This document shows, piece after piece, positions 2,778 to 46,126 of a DNA stretch of 64,000 bases (within the stretch, counting starts at the first letter, position 1; the number at the start of each line of letters is the position of its first letter). Location: positions 6,961-70,960 of the forward strand of contig CAZELK010000004.1 of the NCBI GenBank assembly GCA_964513145.1, written 5' to 3'. The notes under the pieces are model-generated. The model was not told the origin of the DNA and made no database searches. It saw only the letters and a list, made by a program, of their open reading frames with translations. The DNA comes from Candidatus Woesearchaeota archaeon. Lineage in GTDB: Archaea > Nanobdellota > Nanobdellia > SCGC-AAA011-G17 > JACPIM01. The translations under genes were made by a program, and so were the position numbers.

Positions 2778-3560
2778 ATGGGAAATGAAGAAATAGAAAT
2801 AAAAAAATCCACTTTAATTATTGGGGTTGTTGTAATTATTGCTTTTATAATTTTAGTTTCCTTTTTAATTGGGTTAATTACAAATCCCAAAGATGATGGT
2901 GATAATAAGCAAACCATTGAATTTAATCCAAAAAACCTGATAGATGATGATACAATTTTAGGTAATAAAAACTCAAAAGTAACAATAATAGAATTTTCAG
3001 ATTATCAATGTCCTTTTTGCAGAAAAGCTTACAAAGAAATAATGCCCTTAGTAAAAGAAAATTATGTTAAAACTAATAAAGCAAAATTGATTTTTAGGGA
3101 TTTTCCATTGACAAGATTACATCCATCAGCATTAATAGCAGCCTTGGCAGCTGAATGTGCAGATGATCAAAATAAATTCTGGGAAATGCATGATAAAATT
3201 TTTGATGAACAAAATAAAAAAGGATCTGGAACAGTATCATTTGGTCCCGAGGATTTAAAAAAATGGTCTAATGAAATTGGAATAAACAATGAAGATTTTA
3301 ATTCATGTCTTGATTCTGAAAAATATATAGACGAAGTTAAAAATGATTTAGTTCAGGGAACAGCTTTTGGCATTTCCGGAACACCAACTTATTTTATTTT
3401 TACAGATAGCATAGAAAAGAAAGATGAAATTAAAAATGCAGTTCCAAGTGAATTTAAAAATTTTGTTACTTTCATTAACAATGAACAACTAACTGGTGTA
3501 AGCTTTGCAGGAGCAATGCCTTTTGAATTATTTAAATCAGTAATAGAAGCAATGCAATAA
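2778..3560 (+). CDS. DsbA-family thioredoxin-fold protein (tandem paralog)
   Basis: EFSDYQCPFC, GISGTPT, N-terminal TM. Confidence 0.92.
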   Translation: MGNEEIEIKKSTLIIGVVVIIAFIILVSFLIGLITNPKDDGDNKQTIEFNPKNLIDDDTILGNKNSKVTIIEFSDYQCPFCRKAYKEIMPLVKENYVKTNKAKLIFRDFPLTRLHPSALIAALAAECADDQNKFWEMHDKIFDEQNKKGSGTVSFGPEDLKKWSNEIGINNEDFNSCLDSEKYIDEVKNDLVQGTAFGISGTPTYFIFTDSIEKKDEIKNAVPSEFKNFVTFINNEQLTGVSFAGAMPFELFKSVIEAMQ

Positions 3561-5849: not shown

Positions 5850-6737
5850 TTAAAATTCTAAAAATTTTCCATCCTCATATTCAATTTTTACATTCTTTCT
5901 TTTTAGTAAATAAAAACTTTCTTTTAATCTATTTAATTCTGTTTCATTTAATGGTTCTTCAGATATTTTACTTTTTAGAGTTATATAATCCTGTACTACA
6001 GTTGGAGGTAATTTTATATTAATTTCCCCATATCTTTCAGGAATTCTATTAATAGCAGCACAATAAAATGGAATAATCTGGTGGTTAGTCCCAAGCTGCC
6101 AAGTTCCTTTTAGATCTATTCTAGTTAAAAATTTTAATAGATTAATTTCCTTTGCATCAACATTTTTATTGCCAATTGTTTCTTCAGCCCTCTTATATAA
6201 CTCTTCAAAACCAGCCCAATCAAATACAGAACATCCCCAATCAGCAAATAATTCAATTAAACTTTTATTTTCAACAGATTTACTTTGCTTTTCATTTTTT
6301 TTAAATTTAATACGATATTTTTTTGCAAATTTTAGATAATCTCTTAATGTCTTTTCATCAAAGAATTTTATGACATATAGCATTTCATCATTTAATGCTC
6401 TTTCATGTGCATTTCCTAAAGAAGCCTCTTTATATTCAAGTTCACGGATTTCGTGAAACATCATAATTTCTTTAAATTCTTTGGGGACTTTTTCATCTTG
6501 GAATATTTCAGTTTCAGGAACTAAACATTGCTCAAAAACTTGTTTCATTTCCAAAGAATAATCAGAACTTCCATTTATTGAGAAGCTTGTCTTAGTACTT
6601 TTAAATACCTCATAAGTTTTATTTTGATATTCAACTTTATATTTATTTTCTGCTTCTTCTAAAATATTTACTCTATCTAAAGTTATATTTTCAGCTATTA
6701 ATTGAGTAAGTGTTTTTTTTGCCATTTTTTTACGCAA
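5850..6737 (-). CDS. Hypothetical protein
   Basis: 295 aa ORF; FHEIRE...AHERA possible metal-binding motif. Confidence 0.6.
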   Translation of the reverse strand: MRKKMAKKTLTQLIAENITLDRVNILEEAENKYKVEYQNKTYEVFKSTKTSFSINGSSDYSLEMKQVFEQCLVPETEIFQDEKVPKEFKEIMMFHEIRELEYKEASLGNAHERALNDEMLYVIKFFDEKTLRDYLKFAKKYRIKFKKNEKQSKSVENKSLIELFADWGCSVFDWAGFEELYKRAEETIGNKNVDAKEINLLKFLTRIDLKGTWQLGTNHQIIPFYCAAINRIPERYGEINIKLPPTVVQDYITLKSKISEEPLNETELNRLKESFYLLKRKNVKIEYEDGKFLEF

Positions 6738-6822
6738 AATATATTAGTATTTAAACTTTTCCATATGTTATTATTTATAAGTAGTCAAAAATAAAGCTTA
6801 TAACTTATAAATTAAGAAATTT

Positions 6823-42798: not shown

Positions 42799-43989
42799 CT
42801 ATTTCTTAGGGAGTTTGTACAAAGAATAAGGAGCGATACCTATACCGAGTTTATCAAACATATAATCACTTATTTCTCCACCAGTCATACCTTTTCTTCT
42901 AAGAATAATAAGTTTATTTCTAATTTTAGGATTTAAATCTCTAATTAAAACTCTTTTTTTGATCATTTTAGCTAATCTTTTTAGTTTTCTTTTTCTACCT
43001 TCTGCTTTTAAGAAAATATTTATTTTTAAGGCGTTTAAAATACTTTCCTCATTTGAGACTGAAACCGCATCACCATCAGGATAAGAATGAATTTTTAGTT
43101 TTTTAAGAATTTTTATAAAAAGTTCTTTATTTGGATCACAAGCAATTTCTACTCTCCAAAAATTATGGGCTGAACCATCACCATCACATACTCCTTGCAG
43201 GAATGATATTAAAAATTTAGTTGGACAATCTAATAACCAATTCATTCTAACATTATTGTATGTTGTCCCTTCATTTTCTTTTAATCCTAGACAAGTTTTT
43301 ATTAAGAATTTTATGAATGGGGATTTTTCTGATATCCACCTATATAAGCCAAATGGTCTCCTCTTTTCTATTTTATTATAATCTTTTATTCTCTTAGCTT
43401 TTATACCTAAATAATTAAAATTTTTGGATGTAAAATTTCCTATTTTTAAACTCCAATCATATTTTTTAGTAAGTGCTAGAAGAAATTGATTAGAAAATCT
43501 ATATCCTTTGGGTTTACTACTATCGCTAACCATCATTCCCAATATGTATGCAAGGGCTTTTTCTTTTAATTTATGATTCGAATTATTTTTGCCAAGTTGG
43601 TTAATTACATAAGTGATCTCTTTATAAGAATTAATTTTTAGTGAAACTTCAATATAAGAATTATAAGTATGCCCACCTTGTTTGGAATGCAATGGTAATA
43701 ATTTATTTCTTTTTTTAATTTTAATATTGGGAACAGATTCGGCTAATAAGATCAAATATGGTTTACATATTAAATTATTCCTAACTTTATTGTAATCTAA
43801 TCTTAATTTTTTAGCTATTTGAGCACAAGATAAACCTTTATTTTTTAAATTTGTAACTTTGAAGTAATTTTTGCATCTTGTTCTATGGGTTGTGTAAAAT
43901 TCTCCGCTTATTAAATCTTCATAAAAATATAGTTTCTTTAATCTATTTAATAATTCTTTAATACTATTTATTTCGTTTGCACTAACCAC
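42799..43989 (-). CDS. Free-standing LAGLIDADG homing endonuclease-like protein
   Basis: LAYILGMMVSDS and FLQGVCDGDG motifs; HTH-like termini. Confidence 0.8.
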   Translation of the reverse strand: MVSANEINSIKELLNRLKKLYFYEDLISGEFYTTHRTRCKNYFKVTNLKNKGLSCAQIAKKLRLDYNKVRNNLICKPYLILLAESVPNIKIKKRNKLLPLHSKQGGHTYNSYIEVSLKINSYKEITYVINQLGKNNSNHKLKEKALAYILGMMVSDSSKPKGYRFSNQFLLALTKKYDWSLKIGNFTSKNFNYLGIKAKRIKDYNKIEKRRPFGLYRWISEKSPFIKFLIKTCLGLKENEGTTYNNVRMNWLLDCPTKFLISFLQGVCDGDGSAHNFWRVEIACDPNKELFIKILKKLKIHSYPDGDAVSVSNEESILNALKINIFLKAEGRKRKLKRLAKMIKKRVLIRDLNPKIRNKLIILRRKGMTGGEISDYMFDKLGIGIAPYSLYKLPKK

Positions 43990-43992
43990 CCT

Positions 43993-44484
43993 TTATATTT
44001 TTAATTTCTTCTTGTTTTTTGGATAATTTCTCTTTTCATATTCCAGTAATTTCTTTTTTAAAAAAACCACTTCAACAGAATTATAATTTGGAGTAAAGTC
44101 GCCTTTTCTATTAAATTGTTCTAGGCAGTGTTTTATTTCTTCAATATCAGCTAAATCTAGTTCTTCATCATTCCATAAACAAACTAATCTGTCTTCTGGA
44201 TAAAAATATTTGAAATAATCATCATTAAAATGACCGCATTCAGCACAATACAAATTCAAACCAACTTCTCTTATCCAGAATTGCGGTTCTCTTTCTTTCC
44301 CCATAACTTTGAATTCTCTTTTTTCTTCTTCAATTATTCCCCAGACAATTTCAAGATAAAATAATGGCGATTTACAATAAGAACATAGTACTGGATTATC
44401 TTGTTGTGCTAAACTCCATCTTCTAGTAGATTTTATACTATCTGCAATTAGTACTGATTTGTTTATTCTTTCAACTTCGTTCAT
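43993..44484 (-). CDS. Hypothetical zinc-binding protein
   Basis: CSYC and CAEC; ATG at 44484 preferred over the track start at 44514. Confidence 0.6.
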   Translation of the reverse strand: MNEVERINKSVLIADSIKSTRRWSLAQQDNPVLCSYCKSPLFYLEIVWGIIEEEKREFKVMGKEREPQFWIREVGLNLYCAECGHFNDDYFKYFYPEDRLVCLWNDEELDLADIEEIKHCLEQFNRKGDFTPNYNSVEVVFLKKKLLEYEKRNYPKNKKKLKI

Positions 44485-44492
44485 TTTATTGT

Positions 44493-44699
44493 AATTGCCG
44501 ATAGTGAAACGCACTTGTAATTTGAGCTTTGAATTTTGAGCCTTGACTATGGTTATGATAAGCTTTGAACTTTGGTCTTTTAGCCCACCAGCCCTGTCAT
44601 GGGAACAAAATGATTTACTTTATTCGGATGTAGACTCAAAACAAAATAAATCAAAGCACTATCTCGAACTATCGGCAACTTATCTATTTGATAGATAAG
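44493..44699 (-). ncRNA. Putative structured non-coding RNA downstream of DIP1984-family gene
   Basis: Perfect 9-bp hairpin 44679-44699; ttgccgatagt/actatcggcaa closing stem (44495-44505/44668-44678); 10-bp inner stem (44534-44543/44632-44641); 7-nt periodic repeats. Confidence 0.6.
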
Positions 44700-44713
44700 C
44701 AAAAATTTGGCAG

Positions 44714-45172
44714 CTAAATTAATAATTCCGCAGTCCAATTAGTTATTTGTATTTTATTATCTAAATTTGTTTTTTCTACTTGTAATTTCTCGATTTCTTC
44801 TTCTATTTTTTTCTCTTCAATTAATGGGTGTTTGTCTACATCATTTTTTTCTCTAAATAAGTAATCTCTTTTTCTCTCAAATAAATTGCCCATATCTGAA
44901 ATCCTTGCTCTTAGATCGCTTATTTTTAATATTGCTTCTGCTACTGTAATATCACCATCAATAAGTCTTATGCCTAAATTAGTTTTTTGAATCTTTAATT
45001 TTAATTGCTTAATTTCTTCTGTTTTTTCATTAATTTGTTTAGTTAAATCCCTTATATCGAATGGTGGTTTTTTCTTAGTTTCAATGTAGAAGTTTTCTTT
45101 TCTTAAATTTACTAACCTAGATAATCTTGCTTTTTCTTTTTTCAACAATGACAATGCTTCACCTAATTTCAT
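44714..45172 (-). CDS. DIP1984-family coiled-coil protein
   Basis: MKLGEAL... N-terminus, TVAEAI, LDNKIQITNWTAEL C-terminus. Confidence 0.8.
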   Translation of the reverse strand: MKLGEALSLLKKEKARLSRLVNLRKENFYIETKKKPPFDIRDLTKQINEKTEEIKQLKLKIQKTNLGIRLIDGDITVAEAILKISDLRARISDMGNLFERKRDYLFREKNDVDKHPLIEEKKIEEEIEKLQVEKTNLDNKIQITNWTAELLI

Positions 45173-45231: not shown

Positions 45232-45441
45232 CTACACTGATTTTTCTTTACCGTCCAAATAAGTTATAAAACATGTTCTATTATTCTCATCTTTAGCTAA
45301 ATAACTGAATAATAGCTTACCTTTTTGCAGACATGACCCTATTGCGACTAATTTGTTTATAGAAATACTAAATGTTGCTCTTTTTTGTGAAACTTTACAT
45401 TTCCAGCCGATATTATCAAAAATTATTTCCATCAAATACAT
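45232..45441 (-). CDS. Small hypothetical protein (AbrB-like swapped-hairpin possible)
   Basis: KVSQKRATFSISINK...LQKGKLLFSYL. Confidence 0.55.
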   Translation of the reverse strand: MYLMEIIFDNIGWKCKVSQKRATFSISINKLVAIGSCLQKGKLLFSYLAKDENNRTCFITYLDGKEKSV

Positions 45442-45548: not shown

Positions 45549-45657
45549 CCGGAAGATTTTCGGTGTCCAGTTGGTATTTCCTGAAAAGTTTTCGGTTTAA
45601 TATTTAAATAAGCCAAAAGATTTACGAAACTAAGTGTAAAAACCGGAAGATTTTCGG
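45549..45657. promoter_or_regulatory. Four phased imperfect palindromic boxes (CCGGAAGATTTTCGG type)
   Basis: Exact copies 45549-45563 and 45643-45657; degenerate copies at 45580 and 45612; 31-32 bp spacing. Confidence 0.55.
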
Positions 45658-45697: not shown

Positions 45698-46126
45698 ATG
45701 ACATGTCCTTTTTGTGATAAAAAAGTCATAGAAAATCAAAAAATATTTGAGACTCTAACAGAATTTGTTATTTACAATATTAGGCCGGCAAATAAGGGAC
45801 AATGTTTAGTAATACCAAAAAGACATGTAACAAATATAAGAGAGCTTTCTGAAAATGAATTATCCAGTTTATTTAATACTGTTAAATTTGTTTCTGAAAA
45901 ATTAAATTCTGCATTAAAGGCTAAAGGATTTAATTATGGATTTAACGAGGAAAAAATTGCTGGACAAAGTATTGAACATTTTCATTTTCACATATTGCCA
46001 AGATATACAAATGATAAAATTCCCGAATTTCATTTGTTTCATCGTGATCCAAAAACAAAGAAAAATCTTGAAGAAAAAGAACTGAAAAAATTTGTTGAAG
46101 AATTTAAAAGTTTTTTTGCTGAATAA
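45698..46126 (+). CDS. HIT family hydrolase
   Basis: QSIEHFHFHILPR; CPFC N-terminus. Confidence 0.92.
   Translation: MTCPFCDKKVIENQKIFETLTEFVIYNIRPANKGQCLVIPKRHVTNIRELSENELSSLFNTVKFVSEKLNSALKAKGFNYGFNEEKIAGQSIEHFHFHILPRYTNDKIPEFHLFHRDPKTKKNLEEKELKKFVEEFKSFFAE

Follow-up and report, generated by a model that had tools for sequence, protein, structure and literature searches.

A crystal structure of a DIP1984 protein has been available since 2009, and the function of the protein is still unassigned. The locus analysed here raises the question of whether the gene for such a protein is accompanied by an RNA with which the protein acts. It lies in a 64-kb stretch of DNA (hereafter the window; 28.4% GC), whose closest protein relatives are found in Woesearchaeota, Pacearchaeota, and Nanoarchaeota, pointing to a DPANN archaeon. 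On the minus strand of the window, a gene encoding 69 amino acids (aa) is followed by a 152-aa gene of the DUF6847/DIP1984 family (44714-45172), some 230 nt in which no credible reading frame was found, a Zn-ribbon gene, and a 396-aa gene. An earlier reading of the same DNA (the original prediction) had seen a folded element in the noncoding interval and proposed that it is a cotranscribed RNA partner of the DIP1984 protein. All the results presented here are computational, being based on sequence comparison, folding, and predicted structures.

A structured RNA behind the DIP1984 gene

The whole structured RNA, a candidate that we call 'DIP1984 3' RNA' (archaeal type), occupies positions 44491-44703 of the minus strand. 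A covariance model matched precisely there, with 103.7 bits (E 1.7e-15) and its full length of 205 positions covered, and nhmmer found a match at 44493-44701 (E 5e-21). The minus strand folded with an energy of -66.5 kcal/mol (z = -6.07), which none of 200 shuffled sequences equalled, while the plus strand gave a z of only -1.36. The sequence profile and the covariance model each found a single copy in the window. The two main helices of the original prediction were recovered. Right after the TAG of the DIP1984 gene, CTTATCTAT pairs with ATAGATAAG (44691-44699/44679-44687) in a perfect 9-bp hairpin with a 3-nt loop, which gains a tenth pair between G44700 and U44678; we designate this hairpin P0 (GCUUAUCUAU-CAA-AUAGAUAAGU, 44678-44700, minus strand). 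The closing stem (P1) is also perfect, with 11 bp between TTGCCGATAGT (44668-44678) and ACTATCGGCAA (44495-44505), both on the minus strand. Its extension to 13 bp with one G-U pair was found as well, and overlaps the hairpin arm by 2 nt.

The other properties attributed to this region could be verified. Its GC content (36-40%) is higher than that of the window, and the only open reading frames overlapping it are 52 and 51 aa long, neither of them convincing. It does not look like a terminator: no terminator-like site was found between 43900 and 45800, in a sigma-70/terminator scan that is uninformative for an archaeon, and P0 is followed by UUGCCG. A coding role is excluded because the repeats described below have a period of 7 nt, which is not a multiple of three, and because close relatives differ by indels of 1, 4, 5, and 8 nt. 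We assigned the RNA to the strand of the gene because the folding energy is strand-asymmetric and G-U pairs are frequent (UG or GU in 14 of 38 sequences at one P0 pair, and in up to 10 of 38 at P1 pairs).

Comparison with Rfam 15 (4227 models, among them those for SRP RNA, RNase P RNA, C/D and H/ACA sRNAs, riboswitches, and large bacterial noncoding RNAs), which the original prediction had called for, gave no match at gathering thresholds in the 64-kb window, and only chance-level matches (E >3) when matches up to E 10 were considered over 44300-44900. In 20 homologous archaeal loci, Rfam detected only tRNAs, away from the element, and ARAGORN found neither a tRNA nor a tmRNA in the window. 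A literature search yielded nothing on DPANN structured RNAs of such a kind. The archaeal DIP1984 3' RNA is a previously uncatalogued family of about 210 bases, and we consider it practically certain that this family of structured RNAs is real. As a separate observation, neither a tRNA nor an rRNA nor any other Rfam family came up in the window at curated thresholds, which makes it a long stretch free of RNA genes for a small archaeal genome.

To find relatives, one genome per species was scanned with conserved DIP1984 peptides, which provided 33 DPANN loci and 3 bacterial loci. The final archaeal set consisted of 41 DPANN loci with an intact DIP1984 gene, corresponding to 38 distinct sequences. 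The element was present in all 41, in one copy per locus, on the same strand as the gene and directly 3' of its stop codon; the sequence profile and the covariance model agreed on this linkage and found the element nowhere else in the 325 kb searched. The element is thus tied to the DIP1984 gene. Synteny was perfect even among proteins only about 50% identical; in most loci, 0-13 nt separate the stop codon from P0, and no gene was inserted between DIP1984 and the RNA in the loci examined. Because the gene downstream of the RNA varies among loci, the element belongs to DIP1984 rather than to its downstream neighbour. In the two closest relatives (loci L037 and L038, both from short-read assemblies), the protein is 80% and 77% identical to that of the window, respectively, and the RNA about 87% identical. 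The only DPANN locus in which DIP1984 sequence was found without the RNA (L033, positions 3001-3177, from a Woesearchaeota metagenome-assembled genome) retains a 58-aa fragment of the protein (matching residues 1-54), and is consistent with a joint loss of gene and RNA.

The linkage was also approached from the RNA side. Searching 241 million metagenome records with a pattern derived only from the heptamer region of the RNA gave 6 matches. All 6 were family members according to the profile, and all 6 had a DIP1984 gene immediately upstream; three of these loci were identical to loci already collected, leaving three independent ones. A repetitive or mobile element (miniature inverted-repeat transposable element or insertion sequence end) was considered and rejected, the RNA being single-copy in 64 kb and present once per locus at a constant position. 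Most archaeal loci also have a T-run directly downstream of P1's 3' strand, which is consistent with archaeal termination after the element. From the position of the element, and from the terminators of the bacterial loci described below, we infer that it is probably cotranscribed with DIP1984 in archaea.

All these RNAs have a common layout after the stop codon, comprising a hairpin (GCUUAUCURU-loop-AYAGRUAAG), the closing stem, variable internal hairpins, and a run of heptamers. The original prediction had proposed to look for a comparable closing stem and for covariation downstream of homologs, and both were present among the 38 distinct sequences. In a MAFFT alignment based on sequence alone (A2, 32 sequences), P0 and P1 were 97% paired, with compensatory changes in 16 of 16 pairs, a result reached in none of 500 shuffles. 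As a control, sliding the partner strand by 1-3 columns lowered pairing to 27-50%. A second, model-based alignment of the 38 distinct sequences gave 98.6% pairing for P0 and 96.8% for P1, with compensatory changes in 6 of 6 and 10 of 10 pairs, respectively. The covariation of the closing-stem strands can be seen by comparing for instance GCCGAUAG/CUAUCGGC, GGUCAAUGG/UUAUUGGCC, and GUCGAAGACU/AGUCUUCGAC. In P0, not only the pairing is kept but also the sequence. One Pacearchaeota locus (L007, 621-690) shows a tandem duplication, upstream of the RNA, of the 5' half of P0 together with the preceding bases (TTATGCTTATCTATTTTAGTA).

To describe the interior of the RNA, we folded each sequence with the heptamers held unpaired. 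The resulting architecture consists of P0, then P1, a small internal loop, and two further helices, P1b and P2, which open into a multiloop; the latter contains a long variable hairpin (P3), often a small hairpin (P4), and the run of heptamers, with the 3' strand of P2 directly behind it. In the window, the 5' strands of P1b (GAGAU) and P2 (GUGCUU) lie at 44654-44665 and their 3' strands (GUUUC and AAGUGC, respectively) at 44506-44516, all on the minus strand, and they pair with each other in both free and constrained folds. P2 covaries between subgroups (AGUAUAGG/CCUAUAUU, AGUGCAGG/CCUGCGCU, AAGCAUGGG/CCUGUGCUU, AUUAGA/UCUAAU), an equivalent P2 is present in most relatives, and the stems found sequence by sequence average 8.1 bp, as compared with 6.6 bp in shuffles. 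P2 is therefore a likely helix, as judged from the sequences.

P3 is a local variable hairpin, located in the window at 44612-44652 (minus strand; GAUUUAUUUUG ... UAAAGUAAAUC). It is preserved through G-U changes in L037 and L038, where the minimum free energy (MFE) fold uses it, and a long hairpin of variable sequence occupies this position in most members of the family. In the MFE fold of the window, the 5' arm of P3 pairs instead with the heptamer array. This pairing is the 10-bp inner stem (44632-44641/44534-44543) of the original prediction; it is indeed present, with one G-U pair, but it is not conserved in relatives, and across the wider family its 3' partner belongs to the run of heptamers. 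Because the two closest relatives form the local P3 instead, the inner stem is window-specific or an alternative conformer, and the nested fold as first drawn corresponds only partly to the conserved one.

The heptamer array, a feature absent from the original prediction, begins immediately behind a conserved GAYGYY motif and continues up to the 3' strand of P2; it is made of tandem 7-nt units with the consensus U-Y-A-A-R-G-A. Over 221 units, the conservation of the successive positions was 100% for U, 91% for Y, 100% for A, 63% for A, 75% for R, 77% for G, and 58% for A. The window has nine units (44518-44583, minus strand), reading CUAAAAGA CCAAAGU UCAAAGC UUAUCAUAA CCAUAGU UCAAGGC UCAAAAU UCAAAGC UCAAAUU. 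Eight units were present in 20 of 32 sequences and nine in 8 of 32. The units are in register throughout the family, the invariant columns of alignment A2 being the U and A of successive units. In 34 of 38 sequences, the array measures 53-54 nt. The window and L037, with one extra unit in common, have an array of 62 nt, and L038, which lacks that unit, one of 56 nt. In each of the 38 sequences, the predicted pairing probability was lower in the array than in the rest of the RNA (mean of 0.54 versus 0.70). A tandem array that keeps one period and almost one length is unusual among RNA architectures, and this one looks like a putative binding track for a defined number of protein subunits.

Other features of the archaeal RNA were tried as defining elements and discarded. 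By eye, we looked for pairing between the P2 5' strand and the GAUGCYUU motif, and between the heptamers and either the P0 5' arm or the 3' end of 16S rRNA; none of these was consistent across sequences. Many members contain, just 5' of the heptamers, a motif (CUGA ... GUGAUGC) that was compared with the D box (CUGA) and C box (RUGAUGA) of K-turn RNAs, and in the clade of the window the corresponding sequence is AUGA ... GUGGGCU; a K-loop was therefore rejected as a defining feature, and no Rfam C/D match was found for the archaeal RNA. We propose to define the family by P0, by P1 with covariation, by the heptamer array, and by its position directly 3' of a DUF6847 gene, all of which are found in the window element.

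A different RNA in the same place in bacteria

The family of the protein is widespread, with more than 4,700 bacterial cluster representatives from one search, and it is present in most of the DPANN genomes sampled. The archaeal element was absent from the bacterial loci searched with the sequence profile and the covariance model. Unexpectedly, a conserved noncoding stretch is nevertheless present behind the gene in the three bacterial loci of the genome scan (L034, L035, and L036). To these we added three Bacillota genes from assemblies and further loci from a plasmid collection, located on Acinetobacter, Paracoccus, Streptomyces, and Enterococcus replicons. The bacterial DIP1984 genes, which come from four phyla, are followed by 290-620 nt without an annotated or called gene (the Paracoccus record being essentially unannotated). 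All the bacterial loci collected (L034-L036 and L045-L053) hold a conserved element of about 190 nt in this interval, for example L049:2960-3160, L036:1737-1935, and L050:1985-2190; the carriers include Bacillota, Streptomyces, Paracoccus, and Acinetobacter plasmids.

The bacterial element is made of an outer helix, an internal loop with GGCG on the 5' side and GA on the 3' side, and a 6-bp inner helix, the 3' strand of which is preceded by an invariant U-N-A-N-N-A-C-C. Most elements, with the exception of those of Enterococcus and Acinetobacter, end in a G-rich tail (GAGGGYGGG-N3-4-GGGG). In segments from nine lineages, anchored on sequence motifs that we had chosen ourselves, the two helices were 92% paired, with compensatory changes in 11 of 11 pairs, as compared with 22-40% pairing in slid controls. 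Rfam gave no match at E ≤1 over the elements of 10 bacterial loci. On the evidence of these sequences, the bacterial element seems to represent another RNA family that has not been described. In Enterococcus (L053) and Oscillospiraceae (L034), i.e., in two of the three loci scanned, the element is followed, but not preceded, by a terminator-like hairpin with a T-run. This places the bacterial element inside the DIP1984 transcript. A hairpin resembling the T-arm of a tRNA (GAGGUUCGAUUCCUC / CGGGUUCGACUCCCG) was also noticed in the bacterial elements of L045, L049, and L052, and is missing from other copies.

Several resemblances were considered and abandoned. The bacterial elements have no heptamer-like array; those of Bacillota have AUYGU motifs at conserved positions, without periodicity. 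The GGCG/GA loop at the base of the element looked K-turn-like, but the covarying 6-bp helix pairs the A of GA in Watson-Crick fashion, a register that does not suit a K-turn. Homology between the archaeal and bacterial RNAs could not be shown, the archaeal profile and model having no match in the bacterial loci. The two RNAs correspond only in their position and in a general layout of basal helices enclosing variable hairpins. In sequence, they resemble each other only by a U-N-A-N-N-A-C-C motif ahead of the inner helix's 3' strand, which does not suffice to indicate common descent.

The DIP1984 protein and the neighbouring genes

The assignment of the 152-aa protein to its family was based on a match to Pfam PF20935 (DUF6847), with 51.9 bits for a cut-off of 27 and 137 of the 141 profile positions covered. 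The match to NCBIfam NF038048 (DIP1984) reached 65.5 bits, slightly below the cut-off of 70, and close homologs carry the NCBI name 'DIP1984 family protein'. A profile search also retrieved PDB entry 3KDQ, the DIP1984 protein of Corynebacterium diphtheriae (E 5.7e-10). The AlphaFold2 model of the window protein consists of four helices (mean predicted local distance difference test, pLDDT, of 87), and Foldseek found 3KDQ as its sole match in the PDB, with a template modelling score of 0.85-0.86 and an E value of 5e-5, every other chain having an E value of 1 or more. The two proteins therefore have family and fold in common; they differ in sequence (about 22% identity), and the entry text of 3KDQ describes a functionally unknown conserved protein, with no RNA in the record. 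PADLOC and PHROGs gave no meaningful match for the DIP1984 protein, the 69-aa protein, or the Zn-ribbon protein, the sole PADLOC-DB match of the window DIP1984 protein being a weak one (PDC-S66, E 0.007). In the literature search, no mention of DIP1984 or DUF6847 was found, and published statements on the protein merely repeat the annotation 'septicolysin'. This name, that of a cytolysin, is given to the Acinetobacter protein in some records and papers, and we found no support for it in sequence or fold. The Acinetobacter gene is present on 342 plasmid records, many of them 8.7-kb plasmids (e.g., NC_011585.2, pAB0057, 6332-6793).

The 69-aa gene (c1; 45232-45441, minus strand) is a conserved upstream neighbour of DIP1984 in DPANN, with a same-strand homolog in 24 of 32 loci (several of the remaining ones lack upstream sequence) and in 4 of 6 metagenome loci. 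The protein has 91 homologs, all from DPANN, and no Pfam domain. It is predicted to be a small all-beta protein, with an AlphaFold2 model of five strands (pLDDT 77) and no significant fold match. The label 'AbrB-like' that it had received could thus not be confirmed. The Zn-ribbon gene (43993-44481, minus strand; 162 aa from the ATG at 44481) is a clade-specific neighbour that lies outside the conserved module. Its product has no Pfam or NCBIfam family, and a homolog is found 3' of the RNA in 6 of 32 loci (the window, L003, L010, L014, L028, and L030). In L037, a 163-aa gene, possibly related, occupies the same position, and elsewhere unrelated genes, on one strand or the other, come after the RNA. 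The idea of a module comprising both neighbours thus stood for the upstream gene and not for the downstream one.

The interval between the 69-aa gene and DIP1984 is a hotspot for insertions, often of mobile-looking genes. Gene clusters c5/c10 (in L003, L010, L014, L023, L024, and L029) and c6 (in L011, L012, L019, L024, and L026) lie mostly in this interval. One inserted gene encodes about 200 aa with a nucleotidyltransferase-like motif (GSAV...GDIDIL) and is accompanied by a 180-aa partner without a Pfam match; a Bro-N domain protein is also among the inserted genes. The divergent upstream gene encodes a winged-helix or MazE/AbrB-like protein. In the window, two exact copies of CCGAAAAUCUUCCGG are found on the minus strand at 45549-45563 and 45643-45657, with a partial third near 45580-45596, between a HIT-family gene (45698-46126, plus strand) and the 69-aa gene. 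This sequence is an imperfect palindrome, followed in each copy by (U/A)UUUUA, and the copies may be candidate operator sites for a regulator of the 69-aa/DIP1984 operon. Farther downstream, the 396-aa open reading frame (42799-43989, minus strand) has no Pfam match; it has an N-terminal helix-turn-helix-like stretch (weak matches only) and a motif, LQGVCDGDGS, that resembles the LAGLIDADG block of homing endonucleases.

Possible roles of the RNA and likeness to known systems

What could this RNA do? We favour, at roughly even odds, a reading in which a cotranscribed RNA would act together with the DIP1984 protein, either bound to it in a particle or as a feedback on its own messenger. The RNA would be transcribed as a 3' extension of the DUF6847/DIP1984 gene, with P0 following the stop codon and the stem formed by P1, P1b, and P2 presenting one or two variable hairpins and the heptamer array. 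The latter would then serve as a multivalent, periodic platform for copies of the four-helix DIP1984 protein, or for a partner such as the 69-aa protein, leading either to a stable ribonucleoprotein or to feedback control of the protein over its own messenger. An association that outlasts a complete turnover of the RNA sequence between two domains of life is the pattern to be expected of an RNA and a protein that act jointly, with the guide RNAs fused to TnpB genes and the RNAs of type III toxin-antitoxin pairs as precedents, and the basic character of the archaeal DIP1984 proteins (pI about 9) also speaks for a protein partner. More tentatively, and with somewhat less than even confidence, DIP1984 and its 3' RNAs may constitute an undescribed ribonucleoprotein common to bacteria and archaea. 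In that case the RNA would have been remodelled between lineages: DPANN would have the type with the heptamer array, whereas Bacillota, Actinomycetota, and Pseudomonadota would have the GCG...ACC...GAGGGYGGG type, and the DPANN array would be an assembly track for a defined oligomer of the protein.

Several observations count against a joint action of RNA and protein, or call for caution with the structure on which this idea is built. The DIP1984 protein has no recognisable RNA-binding domain, its sole structural relative being the uncharacterised 3KDQ, and its bacterial homologs have an acidic pI (about 5.2), unusual in a protein that binds RNA. A 3'-untranslated region (3'-UTR) provides one RNA for many proteins, a ratio more in keeping with regulation than with a stoichiometric particle. 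A purely cis-acting element would be expected to show the same strict synteny, and no recognisable conserved promoter or processing site was found upstream of P0 in the archaeal loci. The pairing probability of the array (0.54) is not low in absolute terms, and the MFE fold of the window pairs the array with the 5' arm. The register of P2 shifts between subgroups, so that fixed columns are only 60% paired. Finally, the input of the MAFFT alignment was trimmed by the P1 stem, with possibly a slight bias toward P1; a covariance-model search on untrimmed loci gave the same result, but with an alignment fitted to the structure.

The main rival is a purely cis-acting 3'-UTR element, involved in stability, termination, or translation and perhaps sensing a ligand or a general factor, with no role for the DIP1984 protein. 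We regard this as a real but distinctly less probable possibility. It would account for the constant place of the element immediately after the stop codon and on the same strand, for the location of the bacterial element between stop codon and terminator, and for the lack of a recognised promoter, and it agrees with the acidic bacterial proteins and with the stoichiometry of a 3'-UTR. However, protecting a 3' end would require far less than an RNA of about 200 nt that combines several helices with a repeat array of constrained length and with conserved single-stranded motifs. The conservation of both sequence and pairing in P0 suggests recognition by a specific factor, and the replacement of the fold between bacteria and archaea, while the protein was kept, is better explained by coevolution with a specific partner.

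A second alternative is an independent, trans-acting noncoding RNA gene, with its own promoter or processed, whose function would be unrelated to DIP1984 and whose position would simply be inherited. As a strongly structured, GC-enriched island in an AT-rich genome, followed in many loci by its own T-run, the element does resemble archaeal stable RNAs. This explanation nevertheless seems improbable to us. The synteny persists down to about 50% protein identity, and mobile and toxin-antitoxin-like insertions never fall between DIP1984 and the RNA; the short gap between stop codon and P0 leaves, in most loci, no room for a promoter outside the coding sequence; and bacteria repeat the arrangement of gene plus RNA with an unrelated RNA sequence.

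More improbable still is a toxin-antitoxin-like pair, in which the repeat RNA would neutralise the protein in analogy with type III systems, the array sequestering several protein molecules. What evokes it is the presence of a tandem-repeat RNA beside a small protein gene, the occurrence of the bacterial gene on hundreds of small Acinetobacter plasmids, and the MazE-like, RelB/ParE, and UPF0175 genes neighbouring several loci. But the repeats are of 7 nt rather than about 36 nt and lie downstream instead of upstream of the gene, and the protein matches no endoribonuclease family and nothing in PHROGs, PDC-S66 being its only match in PADLOC-DB. Furthermore, the DPANN gene is vertically inherited with conserved synteny, the Bacillota gene sits among housekeeping genes, and the bacterial element has no repeat array.

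We attach very little weight to a DNA-level element, in which the heptamers would be operator- or iteron-like sites for a DNA-binding protein and the inverted repeats incidental. Short tandem repeats of fixed period do resemble iterons, and regulator-like genes (winged helix, MazE/AbrB-like) are conserved nearby; yet pairing is kept through G-U intermediates on one strand only, the folding z-score is strand-asymmetric, and nothing at the DNA level explains compensatory changes at 16 of 16 pairs. The least credible proposal is a 5' leader or riboswitch of the Zn-ribbon gene, suggested by its ATG at 44481, 13 nt after the closing stem, and by the homologous gene behind the RNA in five other loci, and contradicted by the synteny, since elsewhere the downstream genes are unrelated and often on the opposite strand, and it is the distance to DIP1984, not to the next gene, that is fixed.

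With a conserved, covarying structured RNA behind its gene in two domains of life, the DIP1984 family has for the first time a concrete lead to its function, in the form of a testable protein-RNA hypothesis. Very few structured RNAs are known from DPANN archaea, and the findings extend their number by at least one new family, probably by two. The retention of the pair in reduced DPANN genomes suggests that its function is not marginal.

The RNA and the protein both fall outside the characterised systems, and none of those compared in what follows passed a membership test here. In type III toxin-antitoxin systems (ToxIN, CptIN, TenpIN), repeats of about 34-45 nt lie upstream of the toxin gene, with a terminator between the two, and are cut by the endoribonuclease toxin. 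The DIP1984 locus has in common with them a protein gene paired with an adjacent tandem-repeat RNA, which in type III systems binds the protein. It differs by its 7-nt units, located downstream, and by its four-helix bundle, with no ToxN/AbiQ fold and no corresponding match in Pfam or PADLOC. CsrB and RsmZ are stand-alone genes for RNAs that titrate a protein through GGA motifs in hairpin loops. Here too, many copies of a short motif on one structured RNA could titrate a protein, but the motif is a tandem U-Y-A-A-R-G-A, the RNA would be part of the messenger that encodes its presumed partner, and it has no Rfam match.

With TnpB and its omega RNA (reRNA), a structured RNA that follows the protein gene in the same transcript and partners with the protein, the likeness lies in the order of protein gene and structured RNA (about 150-250 nt) and in the divergence of the RNA while the association is kept. 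The DIP1984 locus differs in that it lacks a nuclease domain, transposon ends, and any variable segment resembling a guide, and its element is single-copy. The array itself can be compared with the sites of TRAP (11 G/UAG triplets) and HutP (NAG triplets separated by spacers of 4 nt, giving a period of 7 nt) in Bacillus 5' leaders. Those arrays act in 5' leaders by anti-termination or attenuation, whereas the present one is located 3' of the gene and framed by a closing stem; the DIP1984 protein matches no other characterised family. The likeness consists of short units with a fixed period in a stretch that may be largely unpaired, the conserved A-R-G in each 7-nt unit recalling HutP, and the unit count, which varies little, suggests by this comparison an oligomer with a set number of subunits.

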